Shown here: positions 14,493 through 37,348 of the stretch, one piece after another
How the letters are laid out: the number at the start of each line of letters is the position of its first letter
Numbering within the stretch: position 1 is the stretch's first letter
DNA from: a virus
Taxonomy: Duplodnaviria > Heunggongvirae > Uroviricota > Caudoviricetes
Length of the DNA stretch: 38,686 bases
Strand: one strand, 5' to 3'
IMG/VR virus record: IMGVR_UViG_2698536640_000025
Notes under the pieces: model-generated
Told to the model about the DNA's origin: nothing
What the model saw: only the letters and a program-made list of their open reading frames with translations
The model's database searches: none
Program-made: the position numbers and the translations under genes

Positions 14493-16241
14493 TCAGAACT
14501 CCATTGCAAAGCCGCGATTATCCTCACGCTCCGCACCAATTGGCTCATTGATAACAGCAAGCATGGTTGCCCAGGCGAGGTCACCATGGCTGACGCCACG
14601 GGAGCGGTCGGTGTCGTAGGTGATATAGCCGCCGGGTGTCTGTATTTTTCGCACCGATGCGAATGCCTGGATCAGGTCACGTTCACTGCGGTCATACTCC
14701 CAGCGTCCGGCACGCACCACCTGAAGCATTTTCATGACCAGTGCCCGCTTGGAGGCGATATTGAAGTTGTACGGTACGGCCATCGGGAAAAACTTTTTCA
14801 CAATCTGATAAACCCCCTCCCCGTTCCCGCCGGTCACATCAATGCCGATATGTTTCACGTTATATTTTTGGGTGTATTCCTCAATCAGTGCGGCCTGCTG
14901 TTCAAACTCCATCCCCTGAACCCTGACAGTTTCCACCGTGCGAAAACGCCCACCGGCAACAAGGGGCGGCACGCACACCGACAGTGCCCCGCAGTCCCCC
15001 TTCCCGCTGCTGCCGTTGGCGTCATACCCAAGCCAGACCTCCCTCACCCCCATAGGGCGGGCAGCAAAAGGTTTCCAGTCAGGCCATTCGTCATAGCCGT
15101 CAACACCGCAGCCGGTGAGCGCACTCAGGCTGAAGGCTGCCTCACCATCACGGACAAATTCGCACATGTACAGATTACGAAATTCACTTTCTGTATTTTC
15201 GCCGCGAATAACACCAATATTGGTGTACCGCCATCCGTTAGCGACAGCATCCTCAATAGTGACAATCTGCCGCCATGTTTCGTCAGGAAAGAGCACGCCC
15301 CCCTTCAGATGCGCATGTGAAACATCAAACTCACTGCGTTTTGAGCGTGGCTGTTCGCTGTTCCAGCGGTCCCCCGTCCAGAACTGATACGCCTCATGTG
15401 TTTCACCTGACGGTGTTGAAAAGTAGGTTCGCGTAAGCCCTTCCAGTGTCGCCATTGCCCCAGCAACCTTCCTGAGTTCCACAAAGTTACTGACCCAGAA
15501 AAATTCATCAAATTTAAGGTGTCCGGTATACGACTGAGCGGTTGCTGCCGATGTGCCAAGGAAGTGAAGCTCTGCACCGTTAGACAAAACAATCTTGTCA
15601 CCCCCTTTCAGTTCGACATCAACTTCCAGCGCCGCCTGCTGAATAAAGTGTTTGAACTGATACGCCTGGCGACGGGATGCGGACAAAAATATCTGGTTGC
15701 GCTGGTACCCGGCGGAGACATCATCACGCAGTGCATCAAGGAGTGCTTCGCGCGCAAAATACCAGGTCGCACCAATCTGACGCGACTTCAGGATCATGCG
15801 GTTGCGGTGATGGCGGTTGTCGTACCATTCGCGCTGATGCCAGGCCAGTGACGGCAGGATTTTTTCCCTGAGTGCGACAATCTGCTCTTCGGTGAAGTGA
15901 TTTTTCAGTTTGCGCCTGCGGGGCTTCTTACCGGAAACAGCCTGTTCTCCCTGACCGTCATTCAGTTTTTTCAGCTGGCGCGTCAGCAGGTCAATTTCCT
16001 TAAAGTCACCGCCGCTTTTATCCGGTTTGGCGGTGAGCTGTATCAGGCGTGCATCAATGGACTGGGTGACCCGCTGGATCGGGGGAGTGGCATCCCACTC
16101 ATCGCGTTTTTTCCACGAATAAATCGTGTTCTGGTTTATTCCCATCAGCTGAGCGATATCCGCCGGGGTATACCCCTGCCAGTAAAGCTGTTTCGCCCGC
16201 ATACGAATAAAGACATCCTGGATCATTGCACCCCCTGACAT
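14493..16241 (-). CDS. P: Terminase large (ATPase) subunit, P2 gpP family
   Basis: Track ORF 14493..16331; internal ATG start proposed near 16241 (or 16226); divergent from O as in P2. Confidence 0.9.
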   Translation of the reverse strand: MSGGAMIQDVFIRMRAKQLYWQGYTPADIAQLMGINQNTIYSWKKRDEWDATPPIQRVTQSIDARLIQLTAKPDKSGGDFKEIDLLTRQLKKLNDGQGEQAVSGKKPRRRKLKNHFTEEQIVALREKILPSLAWHQREWYDNRHHRNRMILKSRQIGATWYFAREALLDALRDDVSAGYQRNQIFLSASRRQAYQFKHFIQQAALEVDVELKGGDKIVLSNGAELHFLGTSAATAQSYTGHLKFDEFFWVSNFVELRKVAGAMATLEGLTRTYFSTPSGETHEAYQFWTGDRWNSEQPRSKRSEFDVSHAHLKGGVLFPDETWRQIVTIEDAVANGWRYTNIGVIRGENTESEFRNLYMCEFVRDGEAAFSLSALTGCGVDGYDEWPDWKPFAARPMGVREVWLGYDANGSSGKGDCGALSVCVPPLVAGGRFRTVETVRVQGMEFEQQAALIEEYTQKYNVKHIGIDVTGGNGEGVYQIVKKFFPMAVPYNFNIASKRALVMKMLQVVRAGRWEYDRSERDLIQAFASVRKIQTPGGYITYDTDRSRGVSHGDLAWATMLAVINEPIGAEREDNRGFAMEF

Positions 16242-16292
16242 TAACAGGGCAAGATTAAGCCTCAGCAATACCGCCTGATACCAGCCCGCGTT

Positions 16293-16310
16293 GTCCCCGT
16301 CGCCATACAA
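16293..16310. promoter_or_regulatory. TGT-N12-ACA dyad (Ogr/Delta-type late-activator site) in the divergent P/O control region
   Basis: TGTccccgtcgccatACA read directly, about 80 nt upstream of the O start codon, consistent with a site centred near -55 of a late promoter. Confidence 0.5.
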
Positions 16311-16381
16311 CTTAAGCACCTTGAGACACACCGTTATCTGCCGCCATCATGGGAAAAACGACCAGGTTATGGAGAATTTCC

Positions 16382-21339: not shown

Positions 21340-23385
21340 ATGGTACCGAAACATTATCAGCTTGTGACGGCAATGACGAACAAGGAACTTGCCGAAAAAC
21401 TTGCGCCCATGCTCAGGGAAGGATGGGGACTTCTTGGGGGACCTGTCTCAGCATCAGAGCCGGGAGCACCATTTTACCTGATGCAGGCACTGGTCACTGA
21501 CAGAGACCTGCCATCAGCCATTCCGGTACCAGAAGGCGAGGAAAACCCCGTACCGGGCACTACCGACGGATACGACACTGGACACACAACTGAGCCAGAG
21601 TTTTATTATGTGGTGCCACTGGCTGGTCAGTCCAATGGCATGGCATACGGTGAGGGGCTGCCATTACCCGATACATTCGACAGTCCTGATCCACGAATTA
21701 AACAGTTAGCGCGTCGCAGTACGGTAACACCGGGCGGCGCTGCATGTACCTATAACGATATTATTCCGGCAGATCACTGTCTCCATGATGTACAGGATAT
21801 GAGCAGCCTTAATCATCCGAACGCCGATCTGTCAAAAGGTCAGTATGGCTGCGTCGGACAGGGTTTACATATTGCCAAAAAATTACTGGCGTTTATCCCG
21901 AAAAATGCAGGGATCCTCCTGGTACCTTGCTGTCGTGGAGGGTCAGCGCTTACTTCCGGCGCTGAGGGGGCATTCAGTGAATCTTCAGGAGCAACGGCCG
22001 AATCATCCCTGTGGGGCGTCGGCAAACCGCTGTATAACGATCTGCTTACCCGTACAAAAGCCGCGCTGGATAAAAACCCCAAAAACGTCCTGTTATCCGT
22101 GGTCTGGATGCTGGGAGAGTTTGATCTGAAATCAGCAACATACGCACAGCACCCGCAATTATTCCTGAACATGGTGAATCAGTTCCGCGCCGATCTCAGC
22201 GCATATGCTGCACAGTGCACCGGAGGCAACGCATCACTTGTTCCCTGGATTTGCGGCGATACCACCTATATCTGGAAACAACAATATACCTCTCAGTACC
22301 CGGTGGTTTACGGTGCATATCAGAACAAAGAAGCGCAAAAAATTTATTTTGTGCCCCTGATGACCGATGAGAAAGGTGCTAACACGCCAACAAACCTGCC
22401 TGCCGAAGATCCTGACCTGGCAGAAGCCGGTTATTACGGTGCTGCATCCCGTAGTAACGGAAACTGGACCTCTTCAGATCGCGCCACGCATTTCAGTTCA
22501 TGGGCCCGCCGCGGCATTATTTCTGACCGCCTGGCAACGGCGATCCTGATGCATGCCGGGAAGACCGTCGCCTTCCTGAAAGGTGCACCCGCACCGTTCA
22601 GCGTGGTCGCAGTACCTCCCGCCACGGCCGGTTCAGACAGCACCACCACGGAAAGCCCGCAGCCCTACACACCTGCACCTCAGCCGGGCGCAGGTACGCA
22701 GTCATCACCGGCAAGAACAACGGCCGTCGCTTATCGCGCAGACGCACAGGAAGGGAAACTGAAAGAACAGGGCTGGACAGGGGCAGATGGAAAAGCCTCC
22801 GTCGTAAATGACTCTGCTGCTGAGAGCGGTAAAGCCATGCGAGTGGAAAAAGTCCAGGGGCAACAAACAGCCTGGAAAATCGCCCACGATGTGCCTGCAA
22901 GTAAAGCAGCTGAATTACTTCAGAAAGGCGGGGAAATTGCCTTTCGTTTCAAAATCCCGGAAGGTGTTCAGCTGGCAGAAAACCGCTTCGCCATGGCTCT
23001 GCACTGGCCGGTTTCTCAGCTACCTGAAAACGTTGTTCTGGAAGGCAGCGCAGGAAACGATATGCTGGCCGCCTTCTTCATCCAGAGCGACAGCGCAAAC
23101 CTGAATCTGATGCAGCACAAACAACAGAATGCAAAACTGGGAACCTTCGGGGCATTTAATCATAACTGGCACAACGTGGTGTTCCGGTTTGCCGGAAATA
23201 ACAGCATCAGCGTGACACCGGTCATCAACGGTCAGACCCAGGCGGCCTTTAATCTGGCGAAATGCCCGGCGGCAGGACTGGATAACGACAAACTGCTGAT
23301 CACGGATATCACCAGTAACAAGGACACCTACCCCGTGCTGATTGAGTATGTGACGGTGGATATCAATAACAGCAACGCCGCATAA
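21340..23385 (+). CDS. Putative NanS-p-like sialate O-acetylesterase (DUF1737-like N-terminus, SGNH/SASA esterase domain, Pro/Thr-rich linker, C-terminal carbohydrate-binding-like domain); moron gene
   Basis: GQSNG block-I esterase motif (PLAGQSNGMAYGEG); N-terminal HYQLVTAMTNKELAEKLAPMLREGWGLLG; linker PPATAGSDSTTTESPQPYTPAPQP; GGAG RBS; occupies the gap between lysC and R that is empty in P2. Confidence 0.65.
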   Translation: MVPKHYQLVTAMTNKELAEKLAPMLREGWGLLGGPVSASEPGAPFYLMQALVTDRDLPSAIPVPEGEENPVPGTTDGYDTGHTTEPEFYYVVPLAGQSNGMAYGEGLPLPDTFDSPDPRIKQLARRSTVTPGGAACTYNDIIPADHCLHDVQDMSSLNHPNADLSKGQYGCVGQGLHIAKKLLAFIPKNAGILLVPCCRGGSALTSGAEGAFSESSGATAESSLWGVGKPLYNDLLTRTKAALDKNPKNVLLSVVWMLGEFDLKSATYAQHPQLFLNMVNQFRADLSAYAAQCTGGNASLVPWICGDTTYIWKQQYTSQYPVVYGAYQNKEAQKIYFVPLMTDEKGANTPTNLPAEDPDLAEAGYYGAASRSNGNWTSSDRATHFSSWARRGIISDRLATAILMHAGKTVAFLKGAPAPFSVVAVPPATAGSDSTTTESPQPYTPAPQPGAGTQSSPARTTAVAYRADAQEGKLKEQGWTGADGKASVVNDSAAESGKAMRVEKVQGQQTAWKIAHDVPASKAAELLQKGGEIAFRFKIPEGVQLAENRFAMALHWPVSQLPENVVLEGSAGNDMLAAFFIQSDSANLNLMQHKQQNAKLGTFGAFNHNWHNVVFRFAGNNSISVTPVINGQTQAAFNLAKCPAAGLDNDKLLITDITSNKDTYPVLIEYVTVDINNSNAA

Positions 23386-23531: not shown

Positions 23532-23705
23532 ATGTTATTCATTCATCAGATCATGCTGTATTTCTGTACTGCCGTCTGCGCGCTGTATCTGATCAGCGGC
23601 GGTTACAGTGTTATCAGAAATTATTTTCAGCGAAAAATTGACGAGCGCGCCGCTGAAAAAATCAGTCAGAAGTCTGCACAACAGAACAACCAGAACATGC
23701 CATAA
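23532..23705 (+). CDS. Small membrane protein (57 aa, one TM helix)
   Basis: GAGGTGA RBS; MLFIHQIMLYFCTAVCALYLISGGYSVI hydrophobic N-terminus; AT-rich upstream region. Confidence 0.4.
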   Translation: MLFIHQIMLYFCTAVCALYLISGGYSVIRNYFQRKIDERAAEKISQKSAQQNNQNMP

Positions 23706-24188: not shown

Positions 24189-24816
24189 CCTGCACAGACT
24201 GGACGGTCTCTTTCAGGAGATCCTCAGTGGTCTGTCCGCTGCCGGTATAAACAAAACAGCACGTGCTGTCGGTCAGGCTGTCCGCGCCGCGCAACAAAAG
24301 CGTATACGTTCGCAACAATCACCGGACGGTAACCGGTGGCCAGCCCGTAAAAAACGTGTATTCCGTGTCCAGGCAGGTGTGGTGTTCATCTGGAACGGCA
24401 CTCAGGTGAGACGACTGAAAAACTGGCGGACAACAACCGGCCGGTACGGCCCCATGATCACCGGTTACGACACGGAGCGCCGGGGAATACGCTCGTTCCA
24501 CAAAGCCGATATTGAAGAATACCTGGAAATTGACACCCGCAGGCGAACGCAGAGCGCCATTAAGCGTCCACCCATGTTTGAGCAGCTTCGGACAAACCGC
24601 TTTCTGAAGGTAAAAACCGATCCCGGCGGCGTCAGCGTGGGATTTGAAGGCCGCGCAGCCCGCATTGCCCGCGTTCATCAGTTCGGCGAAGTGTCACTGG
24701 TCTCTGCCGGTAATGCCGTCCGCTATCCGCAACGCGAACTGCTGGGATTCAGTGAAGCCGACAGACAGAAAGTGACGGAAATCATTATCAACAACCTGTG
24801 GAGAAACACCCGTTGA
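24172..24816 (+). CDS. S: Tail completion / virion morphogenesis protein, P2 gpS family
   Basis: Start MMAPDDLHRLDG overlapping the R stop; longer than P2 gpS (about 214 aa). Confidence 0.75.
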   Translation: MMAPDDLHRLDGLFQEILSGLSAAGINKTARAVGQAVRAAQQKRIRSQQSPDGNRWPARKKRVFRVQAGVVFIWNGTQVRRLKNWRTTTGRYGPMITGYDTERRGIRSFHKADIEEYLEIDTRRRTQSAIKRPPMFEQLRTNRFLKVKTDPGGVSVGFEGRAARIARVHQFGEVSLVSAGNAVRYPQRELLGFSEADRQKVTEIIINNLWRNTR

Positions 24817-26639: not shown

Positions 26640-27255
26640 CCGACTGCTGCCGCCATCATCGCCCTCCTTCCTGCATCATTCGGAACAGGGCGCTCAGCGC
26701 CTGTCAGAGCTGCCGATCCATATCAACACCCTCTGGAACCCCGACACCTGCCCAGCCCATCTGCTGCCATGGCTTGCCTGGGCGCTTTCCGTTGACCGCT
26801 GGGATGAAACATGGAGTGAAGAGGCACGTCGTCAGATCATCCGTGACTCGTGGCATATTCACCGCCACAAAGGCACCATCAGCGCCATGCGTCGGGCTGT
26901 GGAGCCCTTCGGCGCGATACTGAGTATTACAGAATGGTGGGAGAACAACGATCCGCCGGGGTCATTCAGGCTGGATATTGACATATCGGAGCGCGGACTG
27001 ACAGAGGAAACCCGGCAGGAGATGGAGCGAATGATTACCACCGTTCGCCCGGTAAGCCGACACCTTGCCGCCATGAAAATGACCTACGTTGCACGGGGTG
27101 TATCCCGCATAACCGGGGCCACGCTGACCGGGGAAACCATCGTGGTATATCCGGCAGCAGAACTGACAAGCCCGCTGTCAGTCAGTGGTGACATCCACCC
27201 GGGCGGAGTCACCTATGAAGGCATCACAGTAACCATCAGACCGGACAAGGAGTAA
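26623..27255 (+). CDS. I: Baseplate/tail protein, P2 gpI family
   Basis: 210 aa; follows J and precedes tail fibre H. Confidence 0.8.
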   Translation: MAPMNNRLLPPSSPSFLHHSEQGAQRLSELPIHINTLWNPDTCPAHLLPWLAWALSVDRWDETWSEEARRQIIRDSWHIHRHKGTISAMRRAVEPFGAILSITEWWENNDPPGSFRLDIDISERGLTEETRQEMERMITTVRPVSRHLAAMKMTYVARGVSRITGATLTGETIVVYPAAELTSPLSVSGDIHPGGVTYEGITVTIRPDKE

Positions 27256-28595
27256 TGATGGCCGCAAAATACAAAACCATTATCACAAATGCCGGCACAG
27301 CAGCCCTCGCAGCTGCGGTGTTACCGGATGGAGAAAAGATCACGCTGACACATATCGCCGTCGGAGACGGTAACGGTAAACCCACAGAACCACTGGCCAC
27401 GCAAACCGCTCTCGTTAAAGAGGTCTGGCGGGGCGAGGTCAGCAGGGTCAGCCGTGACGCGGAAAACACCAGTTTTTTAACCGCCGAAGTGATCATTCCT
27501 GCGAATGAAGGAGGATTCTGGATCCGCGAAATCGGTCTGTTTGACAGCAAAGGCACACTCATCGCCGTGGGTAATGTTGCGGAAGGTTACAAACCGCAGC
27601 TTGATGAGGGCTCAGGCAGAGAACAGGTATTCCGCATGGTGATTCTGCTGAGCAACGAAGCCTCTGTAAATCTGACAGCCGACTCATCAACCACCATGGC
27701 AACACAGGCTGGCGTGGCAGAAATGATAAAGCAGCATGAACAAAACGGTAAACACCCGGATGCCACAACCACCAGTAAAGGATTTACTCAGCTCAGTAGT
27801 GAAACCGACAGTGATGATGAAACCCGGGCAGCCACACCCAAAGCAATAAAAGCACTTAAGGCGCTGACAGTAACAAGACCAACAGCCCCCCTCGCCGTGG
27901 ATCTGAATACACTGGGGAGACCTGAACATCATGGTGACTACTATCAGCCCAACAACAACGGCGCCACTACAGCACATCACTACCCGGTAACATCAGCCGG
28001 ATCATTATCCATCAGGATGGGCGCATGGGGATTCTGCCAGCAGGAATACACCGCCTGGAATCCACCACGAAAATTTATCCGGACAGTGACAGGTAACTTC
28101 ACCGGCAACGGGCCATGGTCTGAATGGAAGGAGGTTGCCATACTCCCCCTCACGCAGACCGGCGACGCCTCCCTGACAGAGCGAGGTATTGTTCAGCTAA
28201 GCAGCGCAACGGACAGTGACAGTGAAGTGCTGGCTGCCACACCAAAAGCTGTGAAGACGGCCATGACGGCAGCAGAAAACGCCGGGCAGAAAGCACGGCA
28301 AGCACTGGAGGCTGCACAGGCAAAAACACAGCGGACACTCTGGGATGTGGGCAGCTTTATTCTGGCGGCAACGGATGCCGAAGGGGAGTGGCCAGCCAAA
28401 ATTGATATAACGGCCGGAAACACCCGCCCGGGCAGTAAACTCAGACTGATAAGCCTGACTCATTCCGAAGGCAACTTCGGCCCCCGTGAATCCATGCAAA
28501 ACTGGAACACAAACCGCAGGCCACCGGGCACGTGGCGGGCCTGCGCTGACATTTATGCAGGCGCAGGAATCGGAATATTTGAGCGCATTGCCTGA
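27255..28595 (+). CDS. H: Tail fibre protein, P2 gpH family (446 aa; shorter than P2 gpH, divergent C-terminus)
   Basis: Conserved N-terminus MMAAKYKTIITNAGTAALAAAV...; two copies of the fibre motif GxxQLSSxTDSDxExxAATPKAxK. Confidence 0.8.
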   Translation: MMAAKYKTIITNAGTAALAAAVLPDGEKITLTHIAVGDGNGKPTEPLATQTALVKEVWRGEVSRVSRDAENTSFLTAEVIIPANEGGFWIREIGLFDSKGTLIAVGNVAEGYKPQLDEGSGREQVFRMVILLSNEASVNLTADSSTTMATQAGVAEMIKQHEQNGKHPDATTTSKGFTQLSSETDSDDETRAATPKAIKALKALTVTRPTAPLAVDLNTLGRPEHHGDYYQPNNNGATTAHHYPVTSAGSLSIRMGAWGFCQQEYTAWNPPRKFIRTVTGNFTGNGPWSEWKEVAILPLTQTGDASLTERGIVQLSSATDSDSEVLAATPKAVKTAMTAAENAGQKARQALEAAQAKTQRTLWDVGSFILAATDAEGEWPAKIDITAGNTRPGSKLRLISLTHSEGNFGPRESMQNWNTNRRPPGTWRACADIYAGAGIGIFERIA

Positions 28596-28606
28596 CGGAG
28601 AGACTC

Positions 28607-29194
28607 ATGCACACAATCAAATCAGCAAGAAATGCCGCTTATAACCGTGACGGCACTATCGACTGTGAGATCCAGTTTGAAGGGGAGGAGAGCTGGCTGC
28701 CCTATACGGCAACCGAATATGACAACTCGCCACACGGCAAAAAACTCTGGGGCGAACTGAAAGCAGGAAATCACGGCCCTGTATCTGAATACCAGGAAAA
28801 CGACACTGACAGGGAAAACGCCAGACGCCTGAAAAACGACGAAATCAACGCCTGGCGTAATGCGATGGAAGCGGCGAGTTACACCTTTGAACATAACGGC
28901 AGGAAATGGGACTACGGGAAGTCAACGCAGGCCCGCCTTGAGCCTTCCGTTGCTGCCGCAAAAGCGGGGATCCTGCCGCTGGATTTTTTCTGGACTGATG
29001 CACAGAACAACGATGTTCCTGTTTCTGCTGATGAGCTGATTGCCCTCAGCGATGCAGCCGCAAAAGCCCTGTTTGCCAAAGGGATGGAAATTCACATTCG
29101 CCAGCGTAACATGAAAAAAGAGATCGCCGCCCTGAACGATACGGCGGCGATTCTGGACTATAAGGTTGGCTGGGGAAAAGAAGCCGAAGCCTGA
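28607..29194 (+). CDS. G: Tail fibre assembly protein (gpG/Tfa family)
   Basis: 195 aa; position after H; Tfa-like C-terminal region (WTDAQNNDVPVSADEL...). Confidence 0.75.
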   Translation: MHTIKSARNAAYNRDGTIDCEIQFEGEESWLPYTATEYDNSPHGKKLWGELKAGNHGPVSEYQENDTDRENARRLKNDEINAWRNAMEAASYTFEHNGRKWDYGKSTQARLEPSVAAAKAGILPLDFFWTDAQNNDVPVSADELIALSDAAAKALFAKGMEIHIRQRNMKKEIAALNDTAAILDYKVGWGKEAEA

Positions 29195-29204
29195 ACAGTG
29201 ACCT

Positions 29205-29696
29205 TCACAACATGAGACCAGACAGCGCAGAGGACGCCGACGACAGGGCCGACGACGCGCTGTTTTTTAATCCTGCCATCAGATCACCCACCGAGCCCGA
29301 CTGAAGACGCTCACGCAGATCTTCATTGCATCGCTGAAAGCTGACAGTGAACTCAATTTTGCGGGCCATGCCATAGCGATCCAGCTCCTGACGGGTGGTC
29401 CTGATTTCCGTAATGACATACATCCCGTAAATCTGTCCGACACCATCAATCAGTGGCCAGGGTAATCCTGTGTAGGCCAGGGTGTTCAGGGCAGTCAGTG
29501 ACACCTCCCCGCCGGTGATTTCCGGACAGAGCACACCGGACATCGTGATGTGATCTTCACCAGAGCCAATATACTGCCAGGAGGATGAACGGTTAACCCG
29601 TTCATTACTGACGTGTCGCCAGCGTTTACTCTGTTCCACCTGCTGATGCGGCAGGGTACTTAACTGAAACACAAACATCCCATAAATCATCATCAT
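29205..29696 (-). CDS. U: Tail protein, P2 gpU family
   Basis: Track ORF 29205..29741; internal ATG start (MMMIYGMFVFQLSTLP) matching the P2 gpU N-terminus. Confidence 0.75.
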   Translation of the reverse strand: MMMIYGMFVFQLSTLPHQQVEQSKRWRHVSNERVNRSSSWQYIGSGEDHITMSGVLCPEITGGEVSLTALNTLAYTGLPWPLIDGVGQIYGMYVITEIRTTRQELDRYGMARKIEFTVSFQRCNEDLRERLQSGSVGDLMAGLKNSASSALSSASSALSGLML

Positions 29697-29706
29697 CTTT
29701 TTCACC

Positions 29707-32535
29707 TCAGTCGCGATCGCGGAAGCTGCCGGTTCCGGCACGTGCCATTCTGTTCATTTCCGCCCTGACAGCGTCACCAACCATGCGCGCCAGTTCCCGG
29801 GGATTATGCGAACTCACCCCGTGAAGATGCACATGTATCTCCCCCTGAAAGGCGCTGGCGAAGGTTTCCTGCTGGTGCATTCGTGGCGCCGGGCGTGCCG
29901 TCGGCCATTGCTGCACCTGAATCTCCTCCTGTGGCAGCGCGCGCATTCCGCCGGAAGACGGCGCAACGACAGGTTCATGCCACTGCCCCCGGACCGCCAG
30001 CGCCCGTGGAAGATGTTTAAACACAATATCTCCGGGTCCGATACGTTTACGGTTTTCAGCCAGCAGACCACCGGTATTCCCCTCAATGCCTTTCAGGTGA
30101 CGGAGAACGTTACGGTTACCGTCCGGCGCTATCCCCGCAGGGAGCGCCACCGGCGGAGGCTGTGTACCGGAGGCGCCGGAAGGCACACTGGCCCCACCAG
30201 GAGGCGACCAGTGCCACGCCTTCTGAACCATTTTTTTCTGTTCCGGATCCCACTCCCATGCCACCGGCGTTTTACGGGCCTCATCCAGTTTTCGCTTAAC
30301 CCGCTCAGCTTCACCGGGCAGAACACCGAGTTTTTCCAGCACCCACGCCAGACCGTCAATCAGAGCTTTCAGGGGCGAAAAAACCGTGGCTAACGCACCG
30401 GCCAGAGTACTCCCGAACATCTGCCCGGCAGAGGTGCACTGCTCAAGCAAATCACGCGTGGAGGAGACCGGCGTTAACAGGGATTTAAACCATCCCAGAA
30501 TACGGGACAGTGCCCCTGAAACCAGATCCAGCAGCGGCGCAAAACGGGAGGCTGTCGCCATGAAGGGCGCCAGTGCTGACTGTACCCCTTCAATAAATCC
30601 GCTCACAAACGCCCTGACCCGATCCCAGTAGCGCCAGATCAGCAGAGCACCACCGACCAGGGCTCCCACCGCCACCACAACCGGCCAGGTCAGCGCCCCC
30701 AGCGCAGCCCCCACGGCTGAAATCACACCCGTCAGTCCGCCAAACAGCGTACCGGCAACAGAGAGTCCGGCCGGGATCGCGCGAAGCAGGGCAAGCCCCA
30801 GACGCAGTTTCAGTAACGGTGCGACAACCATCCAGGCCGCAACGGACAACGCCCCCATCGCTGTGGTTAACGCCAGCACCGCTCCCGTCGTCAGCGCAAT
30901 CATTCGCACCAGTTCCGGATGCGCATTCACCCACGCCTGCAGACGCTCACCCCACGCTGTGGCCATCCGGACAAGCCCACGCAGATCGTCCGTAATCTCC
31001 CCGATAATCCCACTTCTCAGCGCGCTGAACGTCCCGGTAAGCCGCGCCACATCACCACTCAGATTGTCACGCAGGGTTTGCCCCATCCGGTCCGCCACAC
31101 CAGACACGTCAGCCATACGGTCAGACACCCGCGCCAGCGCGCCAAGAAAGGCAGGGATTTGATCGACAGACAGATCTTCAACCGGTGTACCAAAAAGTGC
31201 GATGGCCGCATTGGCCCGCTCAGCCGGATCGACGATCTGCAACAGACCCGAGGCTGTTTTCTGCAGCGCAGCCCGTGCAGCCGTTCCACCACTGGCTACA
31301 GCCGATGACATCCTGGCTGCATCCAGCCCGATAAGCGCATACGCTTCAGCACTCGCCTTTGACATATCGGAGCCGCGAATACTGAACTCCTTGATGGCAT
31401 CGCCGGTTTTATCCAGCGCAAACTTCCCCTGCTGCGCCATATCCGCAAGGAGCGTCATGGTTTCCGACCCTGTCAGCCCCATGTTACGAAAATGGGTCGA
31501 ATACTCGTGAAGGATCTCAGGCAGCTCATCGCGCATAACCGGCCCCATGCGCTGCATGCCCGCCACCATCAGATCAACCGCCTCGTCACTGCTGCGTGCA
31601 AGACCGTTTTTGATCATGATGGCAGCCGCCTGAATGTGCTGCGGGATATCGCCCCCCATCACGGCCTGCATATCCAGCATTTTTCGGGTGATTCGGGTCA
31701 GTTCATTCTCACTAACCGCCCCCAGCCCACCCAGAGTGGAGCGGACAGCACCCACAGCTTCAGCCGCCAGTTGTGCATCCGGTGTGATACCGGTATGAAC
31801 CATGTGGTTTATAACCCCGGTATACCCCACGGCATCTGACGCGCCCTCTCCTGCCTGAGCCGCAATGACGGCACCATGACGCTGGAGATCCATCACCGGC
31901 GCAACAGCACGCCCGCCAGCGTAAAGTCCTGCTGCACCGGCAGCCAGTGCCGCCGCACCGGCATTACGTATCCGCCCGAGTCGCTCCTGCGCCTGTTCAT
32001 AGCGTTGCTGTGCACGGGTCACCTGTGCGAGCGCCTGCCGCTGTCGCGCCAGCTCTTCGTTATACTCTGCCGTCCGGCGAATGGCTGCCTGTATGGTCTG
32101 ACTGCTGCCCTCTGCGGCAATACCGTGTCTCTCCAGCTCCCGGCGTGAATCCTCCAGGCGTCGCTGATGTACATCCCTCACCCGGTTCAGACGTTCAAGC
32201 CGGGTGGTCAGCGAAGCCATCATTTCACGCTGCCGTTCACTGAGCACGGTACCCTCACGCTCCGCCTGCTGCAGACGGTTCAGTTGCTGCTGAACAGCGG
32301 CAATTTTCCGGGTGGCTTCGTCAAATTTAGTCTGTGCCGCAGCAAAGGCTTCACTCTGCCGTTCAAGCGAGCGGATGGAGTCCTGAGTTTCACGGAGGGA
32401 ATCAGAAAGCGCGCCCACGGTTTCGCGGGCGCGCCTGAGAGGTTGTGTCAGGGTGTCTGCCGCCGCCAGAGCAACCCTGATATGCAGATTATTCATCATG
32501 ATTGTGACTTCCGCTTCTGGCAGCCGCCCGCTCAC
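29707..32535 (-). CDS. T: Tail tape measure protein, P2 gpT family
   Basis: 942 aa; coiled-coil N-terminal region and Gly/Ala-rich hydrophobic central segments; GTG start. Confidence 0.85.
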   Translation of the reverse strand: MSGRLPEAEVTIMMNNLHIRVALAAADTLTQPLRRARETVGALSDSLRETQDSIRSLERQSEAFAAAQTKFDEATRKIAAVQQQLNRLQQAEREGTVLSERQREMMASLTTRLERLNRVRDVHQRRLEDSRRELERHGIAAEGSSQTIQAAIRRTAEYNEELARQRQALAQVTRAQQRYEQAQERLGRIRNAGAAALAAGAAGLYAGGRAVAPVMDLQRHGAVIAAQAGEGASDAVGYTGVINHMVHTGITPDAQLAAEAVGAVRSTLGGLGAVSENELTRITRKMLDMQAVMGGDIPQHIQAAAIMIKNGLARSSDEAVDLMVAGMQRMGPVMRDELPEILHEYSTHFRNMGLTGSETMTLLADMAQQGKFALDKTGDAIKEFSIRGSDMSKASAEAYALIGLDAARMSSAVASGGTAARAALQKTASGLLQIVDPAERANAAIALFGTPVEDLSVDQIPAFLGALARVSDRMADVSGVADRMGQTLRDNLSGDVARLTGTFSALRSGIIGEITDDLRGLVRMATAWGERLQAWVNAHPELVRMIALTTGAVLALTTAMGALSVAAWMVVAPLLKLRLGLALLRAIPAGLSVAGTLFGGLTGVISAVGAALGALTWPVVVAVGALVGGALLIWRYWDRVRAFVSGFIEGVQSALAPFMATASRFAPLLDLVSGALSRILGWFKSLLTPVSSTRDLLEQCTSAGQMFGSTLAGALATVFSPLKALIDGLAWVLEKLGVLPGEAERVKRKLDEARKTPVAWEWDPEQKKMVQKAWHWSPPGGASVPSGASGTQPPPVALPAGIAPDGNRNVLRHLKGIEGNTGGLLAENRKRIGPGDIVFKHLPRALAVRGQWHEPVVAPSSGGMRALPQEEIQVQQWPTARPAPRMHQQETFASAFQGEIHVHLHGVSSHNPRELARMVGDAVRAEMNRMARAGTGSFRDRD

Positions 32536-32704
32536 GCCAGGCGACCACCTCTGCAGGCGTCATTGCAAATATCTCTGCGGGCGGCCAGTTAAAAATAACA
32601 GCAATATCCGCAACGGGATCTTCAATACAGTCAAAGCAAAGACAGGTTACGGCTCTGCCGTGTTCTCCGGTGCCGGTGCATTCGACCCCGAGGGTGCGAA
32701 AAAA
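32495..32704 (-). other. Programmed -1 frameshift extension (E' / gpE+E') with slippery heptamer TTTTTTC at about 32698..32704
   Basis: The -1 frame after the slippery site stays open for about 68 codons and ends overlapping the T start, as in P2 E/E'. Confidence 0.5.
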
Positions 32705-33036
32705 TTAACCGCCGCCGAGCTCAGCGCCGTAAAATCCGCCGTATTCATGGCATACATTTCGGCCTCCTTAAGTTTTGGCTCTGTCACACGCGCAAGCCAG
32801 GTGACCATGGCATCACAGTTCATGTTGTAAAGCGCAAGCAAAGACAGCCCACGCAGCGATCCGGCCTGATTCGCCAGCGGTCCGATTTTAATTTCACTGT
32901 ACGACACATCTCCGCGCACAACAGGCACCGTCAGCTTCACCACGTTCTTAGGTGCAGCCGTAGCGGCAACCGCCACCGCGGAAGCCTCCCCGTTACTGAC
33001 GGCAGTGTCAGTGGTCATTTCCGTTTCTTTATCCAT
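32647..33036 (-). CDS. E: Tail assembly chaperone, P2 gpE family
   Basis: 129 aa; GGAG RBS; sits between tube FII and tape measure T; contains the frameshift site near its 3' end. Confidence 0.7.
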   Translation of the reverse strand: MDKETEMTTDTAVSNGEASAVAVAATAAPKNVVKLTVPVVRGDVSYSEIKIGPLANQAGSLRGLSLLALYNMNCDAMVTWLARVTEPKLKEAEMYAMNTADFTALSSAAVNFFAPSGSNAPAPENTAEP

Positions 33037-33083
33037 TTTCAGTCTCCACGGCTGGATCCCCGCCGTTCTCTGTTAAACAATAA

Positions 33084-33593
33084 TCAGAAGCCCAGCATCG
33101 AGCGGGTGCGATCCGGCAGCACATCCTTACCGTCAATGCGCCAGATAAAATTCAGCACATCAAATTCGATTTTTTCCCGATCATCCACGCTCAGTCTGTA
33201 CCAGGTGTTTTTCATCGAATAACTGTGCTCAGTGTCTTCACCCTGCTTCGCCTCCCCCATATCGATTTCAGTGATGCGCCCGCGGACCTCAATATCCACA
33301 TATCTGATATCCGCATCCGAATAGTACTCACCGGAAAAGCGAAGACGGACTTCATCAAGTGACCCGGCATAACGGGAGAAAAGGTGGGCATCTGCGCCGC
33401 CTACCGCAAAAGAGAGATCCAGTGCACCATCATCAAGACCAAAGTCGACGGAAACACTGCCGGGCATCCCGGCACCACGGAAGGACTCCGTTTTTCGGGT
33501 CAGTTTAGGCGGCGTGAAGGACGTCACCCGCCCCAGCTTGTTTTCGCCATCGATGTACACCGTGAAAACGCGAAGTTTGTTTGGTACCGCCAT
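33084..33593 (-). CDS. FII: Tail tube protein, P2 gpFII family
   Basis: 169 aa; immediately downstream of sheath gene FI. Confidence 0.85.
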   Translation of the reverse strand: MAVPNKLRVFTVYIDGENKLGRVTSFTPPKLTRKTESFRGAGMPGSVSVDFGLDDGALDLSFAVGGADAHLFSRYAGSLDEVRLRFSGEYYSDADIRYVDIEVRGRITEIDMGEAKQGEDTEHSYSMKNTWYRLSVDDREKIEFDVLNFIWRIDGKDVLPDRTRSMLGF

Positions 33594-34789
33594 TACTCAC
33601 CTCCCAGTGATGCAAATGCACCGTCAAAGAACTCATCAGTAAACGTCTGGTGAAGCTCCAGATCTTCAAGCGGTGGTACCGGCGTATATCTGTAGCGGAT
33701 CCGCACAATCCCCTGACGCAGATCCGTTGTGCCGTTATCCACCACGTCATACCAGCACTCTGCCCCGATAAGTTTACCCGCTGTCACAAGGGCACTCAGT
33801 TTTGCCCGGATATCGCTTAACACATCCTTCACGTTCGACGGCGTCAGCGGCTTGTCCACGGTTTCAAACTGCGATTCGGCGATGGTATCCGCCAGCGACT
33901 GCGCCGTACGCGTGTAGGTCTCAAAGGTGTAGGTAGTGGTGTCGAGAGTCCGGTTACCCCAGAAACGGAAGCCGTTACGTTTAATGAGTGTGGTGATCTC
34001 CTTGTCATTGAGGGTTTCCGCGTCACTGTCCTCTGCCTGGAGCGACCAGAACACCGGCACAGAAATACCCAGGACATTATTCACTGCCACATTGGACAGG
34101 GATTTATGCCAGCCCTGCTCGTGGTCAATCTTCGCACGCAACCCGCACGCATACGCAGATGCAGGAAAAGCCTCATTCTGGCCACTGTTAGGGTTGTACG
34201 CGATAAAATCAGGCCAGATCAGCATAACTTCACGGTGAGCAAGATCGGCGCGCCAGGTGACAGCCTCCTGCACGGTATTACAGCCGGGACAGCCCGCATA
34301 CACAAAGGCACGCAGCTTTTTCGCGACGGTTACCAGTGCCGCCACCACCTCTTTGGTGTCAAGCGATGGCACAGCCAGGATCCTGGGACGAACACCAACA
34401 GCCTCATTCTGTTCAGCCACCAGGAGCGCCTGCATGCCTGTATAGGTTCCGTCATTTTTGACCTCACCAATAACAAGCTGCGTTTGTGTCGGCTGACCAT
34501 CCCCCTCCTTCGCAGCAGCAACCCGCACCACAACAACTCTGGTGCTGACCTGATCGGCAATAGCTTTCAGACTTTTGTACAGCGTGCCGGTTTTCCCGGC
34601 CTTACCCAGCACATCCATAACGCGCGTCAGGAGCACCGGCTTATCCAGCGGAAATGTTTTTGCATCAGCATCATCAGCAACAGCCACGATACCAATCACA
34701 CTGGAGTCAATATCATTAATGGCCGTGACCAGATCCGCATTCTCCCGGACCCGCACGCCATGGAAACGGGTTTCAGCCATATTATTCAC
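33593..34789 (-). CDS. FI: Contractile tail sheath protein, P2 gpFI family
   Basis: 398 aa; strong similarity to P2 FI (LRAKIDHEQGWHKSLSNV, GFRFWGNRT, YTPVPPLEDL). Confidence 0.9.
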   Translation of the reverse strand: MNNMAETRFHGVRVRENADLVTAINDIDSSVIGIVAVADDADAKTFPLDKPVLLTRVMDVLGKAGKTGTLYKSLKAIADQVSTRVVVVRVAAAKEGDGQPTQTQLVIGEVKNDGTYTGMQALLVAEQNEAVGVRPRILAVPSLDTKEVVAALVTVAKKLRAFVYAGCPGCNTVQEAVTWRADLAHREVMLIWPDFIAYNPNSGQNEAFPASAYACGLRAKIDHEQGWHKSLSNVAVNNVLGISVPVFWSLQAEDSDAETLNDKEITTLIKRNGFRFWGNRTLDTTTYTFETYTRTAQSLADTIAESQFETVDKPLTPSNVKDVLSDIRAKLSALVTAGKLIGAECWYDVVDNGTTDLRQGIVRIRYRYTPVPPLEDLELHQTFTDEFFDGAFASLGGE

Positions 34790-34892
34790 CCTGCATTCGT
34801 GTGAGTTCAGCAGAGATCTTTACGAACACGGGGAGCTTTTTCACGAACTGCGGTTTCTCGCAATACACATACAACCCAAACTCATTCCGGTG

Positions 34893-34910
34893 GTGTTTCT
34901 GGTATGCAAC
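34893..34910. promoter_or_regulatory. Near-consensus late-activator dyad (TGT-N12-ACT) about 110 nt upstream of the leftward FI start
   Basis: TGTttctggtatgcaACT read in the FI/D divergent intergenic region; one mismatch to TGT-N12-ACA. Confidence 0.25.
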
Positions 34911-34934
34911 TGTGGCGGGAAAAACGGAGGAATT

Positions 34935-36059
34935 ATGGTATTGCTGAACGGTAACACGGTTTATTCCCCCCTGAAAGAACTGGTGAAAATGCCTGATTTC
35001 AGCGTTTCACTGGACAGGGAGCAGGATAAAAACACACTTCAGGAACTGAATAACCGGGTGATATCGCTTTCCATGACAGACAACCGGGGGTTTGAAGCAG
35101 ACAGGGTCACTCTTGTGCTGGATGATGCCGACGGGCAGCTGGCTCTCCCCGGGCGGGGAACACACATCAGAGTCATGCTGGGATGGAAGGGAGAACCTCT
35201 GGTTGATAAAGGCACCTACATTGTTGATGAGGTCGCTCATGAAGGACCTCCGGAGCGGCTGACACTGAGTGCAAACAGCGCAGACTTCAGGGAGGAATTT
35301 AACGTCAAACGGGAAGTATCCTGGCACGACGTGACTGTTGAACGCGTGGTTTCCGCTATTGCCCACCGTTACGGACTGAAAGCCCAGATAAGCGATATGC
35401 TTATGGATATTGAAATCGATCATGCCGACCAGACGGAAGAAAGCGACATATCATTCCTTACCCGCATGGCTGATATGCTGGGAGCCATCACTACCGTCAA
35501 AAATGGCTGTCTGCTGTTCATTCTGCCGGGTGGCGGCGTGACAGCTGACGGGCGCCCACTCCCCTCATTTGCACTGGCACGCAGTGACGGAGACAGTCAC
35601 CAGTTCAGAATAGCCGATCGCCAGGCATACACAGGGGTGAAGGCGTACTGGCTGGATTTGAATCATGGCAAAAAGAAAGCCGTCAACATAAAAAAACGAA
35701 AAACTCACGCTGAAAAGAGCAGCAGCCGGGAAGGCAGCTACATGGAGGGGGCAGAAGGTAACGTGTTCGTTCTGAGAAAAACCTACCCAAATGAAATTGC
35801 TGCACAGCGCGCAGCTGCCGCCAGGTGGCAGCAATTACAGCGCGGTGCGGCTGAATTCTCCATCACGCTGGCCCGGGGCAGAGCGGAGCTTTACCCTGAA
35901 ATGCATGGCACGGTAACCGGCTTTAAAACCGAAATAGACAATCAGGACTGGCTCATTGCAAAAGTGGAACACAATATCGACGGAAGCGGCTTCACCACAA
36001 GGCTTGAACTGGAGGCAAGAATACCCGAGTGGATAGCCGAAAAGGAAAGCAATGGTTAG
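34935..36059 (+). CDS. D: Tail protein D, P2 gpD family
   Basis: Track ORF 34575..36059; internal ATG with GGAGGA RBS; about 374 aa. Confidence 0.85.
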   Translation: MVLLNGNTVYSPLKELVKMPDFSVSLDREQDKNTLQELNNRVISLSMTDNRGFEADRVTLVLDDADGQLALPGRGTHIRVMLGWKGEPLVDKGTYIVDEVAHEGPPERLTLSANSADFREEFNVKREVSWHDVTVERVVSAIAHRYGLKAQISDMLMDIEIDHADQTEESDISFLTRMADMLGAITTVKNGCLLFILPGGGVTADGRPLPSFALARSDGDSHQFRIADRQAYTGVKAYWLDLNHGKKKAVNIKKRKTHAEKSSSREGSYMEGAEGNVFVLRKTYPNEIAAQRAAAARWQQLQRGAAEFSITLARGRAELYPEMHGTVTGFKTEIDNQDWLIAKVEHNIDGSGFTTRLELEARIPEWIAEKESNG

Positions 36060-36103: not shown

Positions 36104-36406
36104 ATGTTTCATTGTCCATTCTGCGGCGCATCTGCCCGGATCCGTACCAGTAAAGCCGCCAATGATACCGGCACCATCCGCTACAAATACTATCAGTGCA
36201 ATAACCTTGAGTGCAGCGCCACATTTTCAACAATGGAAAGTGTGCACAGAATTATTGGCCAGCCTCAGTTGATCTTCCACGATAAAGATATTCCACGGGA
36301 GACAATGCGCAAATCCCATCAGGGACGCAGTCAGTTAACGCTACAACTGGAGGATTGCGGTATGGCTTTAAAACCAGTACATTACGCGCGGGTGCCTTTC
36401 GGCTGA
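36104..36406 (+). CDS. ogr: Late transcription activator, Ogr/Delta zinc-finger family, with C-terminal extension (about 100 aa vs 72 in P2)
   Basis: MFHCPFCG...(22)...CNNLEC = CX2C-X22-CX4C zinc finger; the last about 9 codons are encoded by the first hok repeat. Confidence 0.75.
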   Translation: MFHCPFCGASARIRTSKAANDTGTIRYKYYQCNNLECSATFSTMESVHRIIGQPQLIFHDKDIPRETMRKSHQGRSQLTLQLEDCGMALKPVHYARVPFG

Positions 36407-36726
36407 CGGCTGGAAGGAAAACCTGAAGGCCGGATGTGGAAAGGCCCCGAGTCAAACATATTGTTTAACCCGAGGCCCTAACCATTCCTACCCTAGACAA
36501 GTGGAAGGTTAGCGCCTCCCTGTAAAAGGAGTCAAGCGCTATGCCGCAAAAAACGATCATCGTGAGCATTTTATGCTTAACCATGTTGTTGGCCATCTGG
36601 ATGATACACCGTTCGCCGTGTGAGTTCAGACTTAACATCATGTGGTCAGAATTTGCGGCGTTCTTGCAGTGTAAACAGTAAGAAACCGCAGCGGGGGTGA
36701 AAGCCCCCGCTATCCGGTTGTCGGGT
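36381..36726. repeat. Tandem direct repeat copy 1 (about 346 bp), a hok/sok-like type I toxin-antitoxin locus
   Basis: About 85 percent identical to copy 2 over its length; period about 477 bp; contains a hok-like ORF and a GC stem-loop after it. Confidence 0.8.
36541..36681 (+). CDS. Hok/Gef-family membrane toxin (46 aa, MPQKTIIVSILCLTMLLAIWMIHRSPCEFRLNIMWSEFAAFLQCKQ)
   Basis: Single TM followed by a CE(F/I)R...EFAAF pattern typical of the Hok family; AAGGAG RBS. Confidence 0.7.
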   Translation: MPQKTIIVSILCLTMLLAIWMIHRSPCEFRLNIMWSEFAAFLQCKQ

Positions 36727-36762
36727 TCAGTCGATATGGCACCCCTTTCTCCATTGGATTAC

Positions 36763-36786
36763 AGACGTATTTGCCCGCAATATGCG
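36763..36786 (+). terminator. Rho-independent terminator after hok-like locus 1 (GCCCGCA-ata-TGCGGGC + T6)
   Basis: Read directly. Confidence 0.6.
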
Positions 36787-36857
36787 GGCTTTTTTGCCGC
36801 CCTCCCCCTAAACAGTTTCAACACTGAGCATTGCGCGCACAAAGGGAAATCAGTAGA

Positions 36858-37200
36858 TTACACGTGGGTGCCTTTCGGCTGACGGCTGGAAGGATTACCT
36901 GAAGGCCGGATGTGAAAAGGCCCCGAGTCAAACATTTGTTTAACCCGAGGCCCTAACCATCTAACCTTCGCAAGTGGAAGGTTAGCGCCTCTCCAACAAA
37001 GGAGCAAGCGCTATGTCGCAAAAATCGCTTATGGCCATCACGTTCTGCGTGACGGCAATCCTCATCATCTGGATGTTACATGGTTCGCTGTGTGAAATAC
37101 GGATGAACATCTGGGGAGCGGAGTTTGCGGCGTTCTTACAGTGTAAGCAGTAAGGAAACCGCGACGGGGGAGTAATCCCCCGTCAATCGGTTGTCAGGGT
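36858..37200. repeat. Tandem direct repeat copy 2 (about 343 bp), hok/sok-like locus
   Basis: Matches copy 1 with scattered substitutions. Confidence 0.8.
37013..37153 (+). CDS. Hok/Gef-family membrane toxin (46 aa, MSQKSLMAITFCVTAILIIWMLHGSLCEIRMNIWGAEFAAFLQCKQ)
   Basis: SLCEIR and EFAAF motifs as in Hok; AAGGAG RBS. Confidence 0.75.
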   Translation: MSQKSLMAITFCVTAILIIWMLHGSLCEIRMNIWGAEFAAFLQCKQ

Positions 37201-37247
37201 AAGGCCGAAAGTAGCACCCTCACACGCAAGTCACAAAGAAAAATAAA

Positions 37248-37279
37248 GCCCGCAGCGTAAAAACTGCGGGCTTTTTTTG
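37248..37279 (+). terminator. Rho-independent terminator after hok-like locus 2 (GCCCGCAG...CTGCGGGC + T7)
   Basis: Read directly. Confidence 0.6.
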
Positions 37280-37348
37280 TTTCAAAGATGGGCATTATAT
37301 GGACACCTGAAAATAAATCCCTTTTATTTTCAGTTAATTAACCTCATG

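Follow-up and report, generated by a model that had tools for sequence, protein, structure and literature searches.

Inverted FI-to-U tail block of an Escherichia coli P2-family prophage as the conserved gene order of the P88-like branch

The window, which here means the whole 38,686-nucleotide stretch of viral DNA that was analysed (IMG/VR record IMGVR_UViG_2698536640_000025), carries the tail genes FI to U on the strand opposite to the tail genes on either side. As judged by comparison of gene order and sequence among relatives, this flipped block is a real, standard and long-conserved layout of a large P88-like branch, and an ordinary feature of the lineage. The main value of the result is a correction: the gene order of P2 is the wrong standard for a large proportion of P2-family prophages.

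The gene map was based on the ORF listing, Pfam and PHROG scans, and the RefSeq annotation of the identical sequence in E. coli STEC2018-607, all of which were concordant. The prophage belongs to the P88-like branch of the P2 family (Peduoviridae) and adjoins serS in that genome. The full P2-family tail and late set was found (V, W, J, I, H, G, FI, FII, E, T, U and D). RefSeq annotates V, W, J and I, and tblastn also recovered them in P2, P88 and further relatives. These four genes share the plus strand with the tail fibre gene H (27255-28595; Pfam Phage_tail_fib and Phage_fiber_2, PHROG tail fibre families, RefSeq) and the DUF4376-type fibre assembly gene G (28607-29194; Pfam DUF4376, PHROG tail fibre families, RefSeq). 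On the minus strand are the gpU tail protein (29205-29696; Pfam Phage_P2_GpU, E=1e-38, RefSeq coordinates), the gpT tape measure protein (29707-32499; Pfam PhageMin_Tail, PHROG 28, RefSeq), the tail chaperone gpE (32647-33036; PHROG 103, RefSeq 'GpE family') with its extension E' (32489-32626; reading-frame analysis), the tail tube gpFII (33084-33593; Pfam Phage_tube, E=8e-49) and the tail sheath gpFI (33593-34780; Pfam Phage_sheath_1 and Phage_sheath_1C, PHROG 23, E=9e-119). The plus strand resumes with gpD of the late control D/baseplate hub family (34935-36059; Pfam Phage_GPD, PHROG 52, E=1e-149) and ogr, encoding an Ogr/Delta-like zinc-finger late activator (36104-36406; Pfam Ogr_Delta). 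V-W-J-I-H-G, D and ogr are therefore plus-strand genes and U-T-E'/E-FII-FI minus-strand genes; because strands were taken straight from the sequence, no chance model is applicable. Reading-frame analysis showed that the E' frame is open from the −1 slippery site T TTT TTC (32704-32698, minus strand) onward, and a −1 frameshift is predicted to yield both E and E+E'. All genes of the inverted block are intact, the E/E' frameshift site included.

An earlier note on this DNA had described the FI-U block as lying opposite to V-G and D, and the ORFs, Pfam, PHROG and RefSeq all agree with that. It had G and U converging about 10 bp apart, and the two stop codons (29192-29194 and 29205-29207) do have 10 bp between them. 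FI and D diverge as it stated, across 154 bp (34781-34934) and not the approximately 145 bp given. The P2 record confirmed that P2 itself keeps the V-to-D genes on a single strand. The window departs from this one-strand order (FI-FII-E-T-U-D with V-G), as FI-U is on the opposite strand, and an inversion of FI to U relative to P2, with ends on the G side and at the U/D junction, is correct as a description. D is also cut off from the F operon as claimed, being a separate unit here and the last F-operon gene in P2. The implication that this is a notable rearrangement of the present prophage did not hold. The note had itself named a conserved order in a recognised subgroup as the outcome that would speak against it, and such an order was found.

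The inverted layout is common to five ICTV genera of Peduoviridae, namely Xuanwuvirus (P88), Reipivirus, Reginaelenavirus, Novemvirus and Senquatrovirus, and P88_4B11 is arranged as P88 is. The window shows the trait of this P88-like subgroup, with U-T-E-FII-FI antiparallel to V-G and D-ogr and with FI and D divergent. By blastn, FII-FI/D-ogr was collinear in Citrobacter PhiSM, Serratia KSP20 and many Klebsiella phages. Plaque-forming phages with the inverted layout include P88 and PhiSM (PMC5285337, PMC6456863). Loci were surveyed in GTDB species representatives with D as the anchor. Of 356 loci, the best 80 were taken, every one of them from Enterobacterales; 34 of these species-representative prophage loci were inverted, and these came from approximately 19 genera. 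Within the same best 80, the identity of D to that of the window was at least 57% for every inverted locus and at most 51% for every canonical one. Near-identical prophages in twelve complete E. coli genomes were collinear with the window over 8.5 kb at 94-100% identity. Of 30 rows sampled evenly from the 1,497 matching E. coli records, 24 were collinear over the FI/D junction, and approximately 1,200 of 5,426 complete E. coli genomes were estimated to carry the inverted layout. The P88-type layout may thus be present in a fifth of complete E. coli genomes, and annotation pipelines or scans ought not to report it as a rearrangement. The papers on P88, PhiSM and SEN4/5 are silent on orientation or inversion, and our literature search found no paper joining Peduoviridae, tail sheath and inversion.

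The contrast with P2 is the only point in favour of an inversion that is recent, strain-specific or an artefact of assembly, and we give such an origin practically no chance. The 12 complete E. coli genomes were assembled independently and are collinear across both junctions, which in practice excludes misassembly. The same order recurs in the five phage genera and the 34 species-level loci, across 40% protein divergence. The short inverted repeats that the note had suggested looking for at the breakpoints were not found: positions 29150-29260 and 34740-34990 shared no complementary word of at least 7 nt, and none of the longer inverted pairs in the region joins the two junctions. The lack of repeats at the breakpoints is what would be expected of an old inversion.

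At the left breakpoint, the spacer between the converging stops of G and U (29195-29204) is 10 bp long and has no cargo and no convincing terminator. A terminator scan gave 12 sites, against a shuffled-sequence background of 8.7 ± 2.9, and the G/U junction had none of them. Folding revealed a weak long-loop hairpin followed by T6 nearby (approximately 29226-29268, plus strand), inside the 3' end of U. In P88 the same junction holds an invertible fibre segment and a DNA invertase instead of the 10 bp of the window, and in Reipivirus it holds a DUF262 protein. The G/U junction is thus a variable cargo spot in the relatives and is simply empty in the window prophage. The proposed loss of the second P2 hotspot is consequently untrue for the lineage. 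The conserved layout may help to define hotspot positions in searches for defence genes in P2-like prophages.

Neighbour-joining trees separated inverted from canonical loci with bootstrap values of 100 for D, FI and U, 99 for FII and 98 for Ogr, and the window proteins D, FI, FII, U and Ogr grouped with the inverted subgroup, apart from the canonical P2-type loci. The trees were unrooted and built on the best 80 of 356 loci, from Enterobacterales throughout. The trees of the baseplate proteins J and V ignored the split, which marks the genomes as mosaic and restricts the meaning of the 'clade' to the FI-U-D-ogr modules. This mosaicism of P2-family genomes would suit an exchange of modules, in which the FI-U genes of the ancestor were replaced by a block from another phage inserted backwards, with no inversion in place; the window fibre genes H and G do derive from lambdoid-type modules. 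We regard this exchange as very improbable. Protein identity to P2 was even across the flanking genes and those of the block (V 46%, W 41%, J 52%, I 51%, U 46%, FII 45%, FI 49% and D 47%); overall, divergence was alike inside and outside the block (about 39-52% identity) with no gene lost. Moreover, D and Ogr, outside the block, split in the same way as FI, FII and U inside it, and the spacing from pF to FI is unaltered.

The direction of the change was assigned by parsimony, and the one outgroup used has the canonical gene order. The canonical order occurs in P2, Fels-2 (186-type) and the distant Pseudomonas phage phiCTX, whose genes run V-W-J-I-H-G-FI-FII-E-T-U-D on a single strand. Unrooted trees alone give no polarity, which leaves room for a divergent layout that is ancestral and a one-strand P2 layout that is derived. 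We consider that reading very improbable, given the one-strand order in phiCTX, the late genes of HP1, also all on one strand, and the greater diversity of D among canonical loci. The comparison shows that the layout is neither recent nor an assembly error, and it is best explained by a single ancient inversion. We believe, with high confidence, that one inversion took place in the ancestor of the P88-like branch and has been inherited since; the promoter would have been carried along, and its dyad would now be shared.

The new proposal of this study concerns that last part. The data suggest that the late promoter of the F operon was moved together with the block and that its dyad is shared by FI-U and D-ogr. 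Late promoters of this family depend on Ogr and have the consensus TGT-N12-ACA (PMC3931495). An exact scan of the window for this consensus gave 9 matches, which is the chance level, and none in the FI-D spacer. The dyad in that spacer was located only through the alignment of relatives, and it has one mismatch (TCT) to the consensus. It is a predicted Ogr/Delta-type activator site, TCTCGCAATACACATACA (34856-34873), a TCT-N12-ACA variant that also occurs in P88 and the closest relatives of P88; at the aligned position, 25 of the 34 inverted loci have an exact TGT-N12-ACA. The FI ATG lies 84.5 bp and the D ATG 70.5 bp from the centre of the window dyad. In the 34 inverted loci, a single dyad lies 82.9 ± 2.3 bp from the FI ATG; canonical loci have a corresponding distance of 80.8 ± 1.3 bp, and the pF dyad of P2 is at 82.5 bp. 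On the other side, the distance between the dyad centre and the inferred D start averages 74 ± 8.5 bp for the full set of 34 loci; 32 of them fall within 66-81 bp, and the two outliers are at 55.5 and 110.5 bp. Of the 34 inverted loci in which a dyad was located, 32 have an inferred FI-D spacer of 140-162 bp, and miscalled D starts account for the other two. No cargo was seen in this spacer in inverted loci of at least 19 genera. The window shares the subgroup trait, with 154 bp and one central dyad.

In the dyad-anchored alignment, the dyad and -10-like columns were kept, and the rest of the FI-D intergenic region was unconserved. For pF, the predicted -10 is AAAGAT (34816-34821, minus strand), at conserved 'AT..T' columns -49 to -45 from the dyad centre, with a predicted start at approximately 34809. 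For pD, the predicted -10 is AACTGT (34907-34912, plus strand), at conserved 'G..A..aT' columns +43 to +50, with a predicted start at approximately 34920. The 154-bp control region may therefore act as a bidirectional late promoter, with pF leftward and pD rightward. A consensus sigma-70 scan found no promoter in the FI-D spacer; activator-dependent promoters are expected to be missed by such a scan, so the result gives no support either. A second one-mismatch dyad, TGTTTCTGGTATGCAACT (34893-34910), resembles the P2 pF flank CCGGTGGT and could matter. It was the first candidate for the dyad and was set aside: 33 bp separate it from the D ATG, it lacks a partner -10, and it does not coincide with the conserved column.

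A precedent exists in P2, in which one activator site (3057-3087) serves both pP and pO, with starts 56 and 55 bp on either side according to the P2 record. The FI-D spacer of the window resembles this arrangement in having a single predicted site about midway between two divergent late genes with matching spacing, and both the spacing and the conserved -10-like elements would fit a bidirectional reading of the pP/pO type. P2 pP/pO controls head genes; the proposed use for FI and D would be particular to the inverted lineage. The window has its own P/O spacer, with an exact TGT-N12-ACA dyad at 16292-16309 and spacing similar to that of P2 pP/pO.

We propose that the F-operon late promoter travelled with the inverted piece, its dyad still lying approximately 83 bp upstream of FI as in P2, and that D, severed from the F operon, came to begin approximately 70-80 bp beyond the same dyad on the other side. 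A single Ogr-bound dyad, approximately 55 bp from each predicted start, would then fire pF leftward (FI to U) and pD rightward, the latter transcript covering D and probably ogr. The F and V operons now end tail to tail at the G/U junction. Because P2 already shares a site at pP/pO, the spacing is conserved and the -10-like elements mirror each other, these data suggest that FI-U and D-ogr are driven divergently from one dyad. If the dyad is shared by pF and pD, this would account for the constant cargo-free FI-D spacer of approximately 150 bp while the G/U junction varies. Alternatively, the dyad may serve pF alone, and D-ogr may be expressed from its own Ogr-independent promoter or by another route. 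The P2 record gives ogr a promoter of its own, the window dyad is imperfect and the consensus scan confirmed no promoter, so this alternative deserves some weight, though we find it rather unlikely. D is a structural late gene and requires late expression; the dyad-to-D distance stays within 66-81 bp in nearly all loci (32/34), the mirror position (+45 to +50) has kept a -10-like element, the FI-D spacer never holds cargo and the pP/pO precedent points the same way. We lean, by a little, towards the sharing of the dyad in its fullest form, in which the inversion made a fifth late unit, the pF dyad was co-opted for a divergent D-ogr promoter and Ogr drives its own gene in a positive feedback. 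Read in this way, the lineage would be an example of a phage tolerating an operon-scale inversion, since the promoter moved along and a symmetric activator site was reusable for the stranded gene.

The nearest named system is P88 (Xuanwuvirus). It shares with the window V-W-J-I-H-G on one strand, U-T-E'-E-FII-FI on the other, then D-ogr, as well as a hok/mok locus near the attachment end, an FI-D spacer of 154-157 bp and the same TCT-N12-ACA dyad variant. Protein identity between the two is 79% for D, 76% for FI and 69% for U. The fibre H/G module differs, and a NanS-p-like esterase insert of the window is absent from P88. The ICTV genus criterion is at least 70% (0.70) nucleotide similarity over the genome. 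Intergenomic nucleotide similarity of the window to P88 is only approximately 0.29 (blastn identity × coverage) and megablast covers at most 20% of the query, which places the window outside the genus Xuanwuvirus. Reipivirus, Reginaelenavirus, Novemvirus and Senquatrovirus (Klebsiella, Enterobacter and Salmonella phages) have the same inverted block and divergent FI/D-ogr junction and are more distant, with 60-71% identity for D and 58-73% for FI; their G/U cargo differs. P2 (Peduovirus) resembles the window in its gene set, E/E' frameshift, Ogr-family activator and dyad-to-FI distance of approximately 83 bp. It differs in being on one strand throughout, with D last in the F operon, Z/fun between G and FI, and protein identities of only 41-52% (47% for D).

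Some further observations were made on the prophage. No usable core repeat of an attachment site was found between its two ends, the longest common word being 9 nt. RefSeq marks its terminase large subunit as frameshifted, and the prophage may be defective for this reason, which is unrelated to the inversion. The cysteines of its Ogr are arranged as C-X2-C-X24-C-X4-C, and P2 Ogr has X22 in place of X24.

The window holds a P2-family prophage adjoining serS, in which genes for the integrase, the C/Cox-type switch and replication (A), for portal, terminase and capsid, for lysis, baseplate and tail, and ogr were all found. An 8.5-kb stretch around the inverted block matches the E. coli STEC2018-607 chromosome (NZ_CP075697.1) at 100% identity. 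ORF, domain and annotation coordinates from H to ogr bore out the gene identities and strands of the earlier note. H (27255-28595) and G (28607-29194) are on the plus strand, U (29205-29696), T (29707-32499), E' (32489-32626), E (32647-33036), FII (33084-33593) and FI (33593-34780) are on the minus strand, and D (34935-36059) and ogr (36104-36406) are again on the plus strand. The slippery sequence T TTT TTC of E/E' is preserved. G and U lie tail to tail with stop codons 10 bp apart, as estimated before, and FI and D are divergent, with 154 bp between the start codons instead of about 145 bp. All these genes are on one strand in the P2 reference record, as the note had stated, and D is the last F-operon gene there. 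Compared with this single-strand order, the layout equals an inversion of the FI-U segment. The inversion therefore holds as a description, but it is neither special to this prophage nor a notable rearrangement, because the order is conserved in a recognised subgroup.

The exact same order was found in P88 and P88_4B11 (genus Xuanwuvirus), and the same order in Klebsiella phages ST16-OXA48phi5.4 (Reipivirus) and 3LV2017 (Reginaelenavirus), Enterobacter phage phiT5282H (Novemvirus) and Salmonella phage SEN4 (Senquatrovirus). A sensitive blastn search with FII-FI-spacer-D-ogr gave collinear matches in these phages, and also in Citrobacter PhiSM, Serratia KSP20 and many Klebsiella phages. P88 and PhiSM are plaque-forming (PMC5285337, PMC6456863), which shows that a phage with this layout can function. 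The prophage agreed with the P88-like subgroup in every test. Its nucleotide identity multiplied by coverage to P88 was only about 0.29, and no isolated phage closer than P88 was found among the blast matches, which places it by sequence outside the genus Xuanwuvirus and within the P88-like subgroup. The inverted layout is already visible in deposited, classified genomes; no published comment on it was found in the searchable literature library.

A D-anchored search was performed with one genome per bacterial species and 10 kb of flank, and the window proteins were mapped by tblastn onto the best 80 of 356 loci. In 34 of the 80, U, T, E, FII and FI on the minus strand were followed by D and ogr on the plus strand; 44 were canonical, and two without FI and U were unclassed. 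According to record titles, the inverted loci came from Salmonella, Edwardsiella, Citrobacter, Brenneria, Kosakonia, Klebsiella, Serratia, Chania, Enterobacter, Dryocola, Providencia, Rouxiella, Hafnia, Photorhabdus, Xenorhabdus, Pectobacterium, Yersinia, Morganella and Pantoea. One contig labelled as the Gram-positive Vagococcus sp. WN89Y (L006) has a P88-like prophage of enterobacterial kind (D identity 78%), and is probably contamination or a mislabelled assembly. Among these best 80 of 356 loci, D identity to the window split cleanly, at least 57% in every inverted locus and at most 51% in every canonical one. Within E. coli, the block of this prophage recurs in 12 complete genomes, with 94-100% identity and without a break in collinearity at either junction. 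An FI/D-junction blastn matched 1,494 of 5,426 complete E. coli genomes, and 24 of 30 rows sampled at even steps spanned FI and D collinearly. This suggests that about 1,200 E. coli genomes, including ST131, O104:H4 and UMNK88 strains, carry the layout.

Neighbor-joining trees of the surveyed loci (best 80 of 356) separated inverted from canonical loci with bootstrap values of 100 for D, FI and U, 99 for FII and 98 for Ogr. The J and V trees missed this split (0 and 13), which indicates, at the level of these trees, that the V-G baseplate module recombines between the two lineages and that FI-U-D-ogr does not. J identity across the two groups reached 88% among these loci. Import of a foreign block would be another origin of the layout. 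Identity to P2 was alike in the block (U 46, FII 45 and FI 49%) and its flanks (V 46, W 41, J 52, I 51 and D 47%), and this even divergence argues against import. The one-strand order occurs in P2, Fels-2 and the distant Pseudomonas phage phiCTX, and HP1 has a different gene order, likewise on a single strand. By parsimony rather than rooted reconstruction, the simplest reading is that the P88-like branch descends from an ancestor in which a single inversion took place. No inverted repeats remain at the junctions in the window. Two Yersinia loci (L044 and L046) pass from V-W-J(-I) directly to U-D or D, without fibre, sheath, tube or tape-measure genes between, and look like deletion remnants of canonical prophages.

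P2 late promoters are Ogr-dependent and share a TGT-N12-ACA element (PMC3931495). In the P2 record annotation, a single activator site (3057-3087) serves pO and pP alike, and their start sites lie 56 and 55 bp away on its two sides. When the FI-D spacers of inverted loci were aligned, a central dyad was located in 34 of the 35 examined. It was an exact TGT-N12-ACA in 25 of the 34 and TCT-N12-ACA in seven, including the window (34856-34873) and P88; carriers of the latter also include Salmonella, Edwardsiella, Citrobacter and Pantoea coffeiphila loci. Two Providencia loci (L019 and L030) have the symmetric TCT-N12-AGA, with both half-sites changed, against TCT-N12-ACA in the window and the other loci just named, which hints that the site and Ogr specificity co-evolved. 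The distance from dyad centre to FI ATG was 82.9 ± 2.3 bp in inverted loci, 80.8 ± 1.3 bp in canonical loci and 82.5 bp in P2. These like distances indicate that the F promoter moved with the inverted block.

The dyad centre was 66-81 bp from the D ATG in 32 of 34 loci. Dyad-anchored ungapped alignment showed little conservation beyond the dyad and the short blocks beside it, except for two -10-like elements in mirror-image positions, "AT..T" at -49 to -45 on the FI side and "G..A..aT" at +43 to +50 on the D side. From both elements, starts are predicted near 34809 (minus) and 34920 (plus) in the window, at a distance of about 55-57 bp from the dyad centre. The P/O spacer of the window has an exact dyad (16292-16309) at similar distances from both genes. 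From the dyad position, the mirror elements and the P/O precedent, we propose a bidirectional late promoter, in which one Ogr site would fire the F-operon promoter pF leftward and a promoter of D, pD, rightward. D, probably with ogr 44 bp downstream, would form a fifth late unit. The inferred FI-D spacer of 140-162 bp in 32 of 34 loci fits the constraint of a shared promoter; in both outliers the deviation goes back to a miscalled D start. This shared-dyad promoter is the one modestly new, testable idea of the analysis. Another exact TGT-N12-ACA dyad (TGTCCGCGCCGCGCAACA, 24279-24296) is located within tail gene S, some 520 bp upstream of V; it may have arisen by chance or act as an internal late promoter of the V operon.

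At the G|U position, P88 has an invertible fibre segment with its invertase, Reipivirus has a DUF262 protein, and other relatives have spacers of 35-460 bp. Thus, a variable spot beside the fibre genes persists in the lineage and is empty in the window. The DUF4376-type G of the window was in none of the other surveyed loci (best 80 of 356). In DNA, its region 28813-29173 is 75-80% identical to genes for tail fibre assembly that come chiefly from lambdoid and Eib-type E. coli phages, which suggests exchange of the fibre tip module between phage families. Because this similarity ends about 20 bp before the G stop codon, the 10-bp junction is probably a by-product of that exchange. Terminator scanning and folding found no convincing terminator at the junction.

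The terminase large subunit (14494-16226) is a frameshifted pseudogene in RefSeq, yet 14493-16331 contains an open reading frame of 612 aa; a packaging defect, independent of the inversion, may be present. A truncated DUF2138 gene beside yfaT- and alpha-2-macroglobulin-like genes forms the left flank (1-600), and serS the right one. The two prophage ends share no attachment-site core repeat of more than 9 nt, which may mean that one boundary was remodelled. Between ogr and serS, a unit of about 475 bp is tandemly duplicated (36371-37320; 77-100% identity between copies), each copy with a Hok/Gef family toxin gene, whereas P88 has one MokW/hok locus at this site. In the early region, upstream of small ORFs, two segments (6968-7042 and 7078-7165) exceeded the Rfam gathering score, with matches to isrK (58.9 bits) and to the C4 antisense RNA of P1/P7-type immunity systems (80.3 bits), which suggests a c4/icd/ant-like anti-repressor module in this P2-family prophage. 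An insert between lysC and tail gene R encodes a 681-aa protein (21340-23385) whose domains are DUF1737, SASA (sialate O-acetylesterase) and DUF6645, with a DUF1378 gene (23532-23705) after it. The domain set of the 681-aa protein resembles the NanS-p esterases of Stx-converting lambdoid phages. Stx-converting phages made up more than 130 of the 262 phage records matched by a 24-kb early/head-region query including this insert, and a lambdoid-type cargo gene within the late operon of a P2-family phage is unusual.
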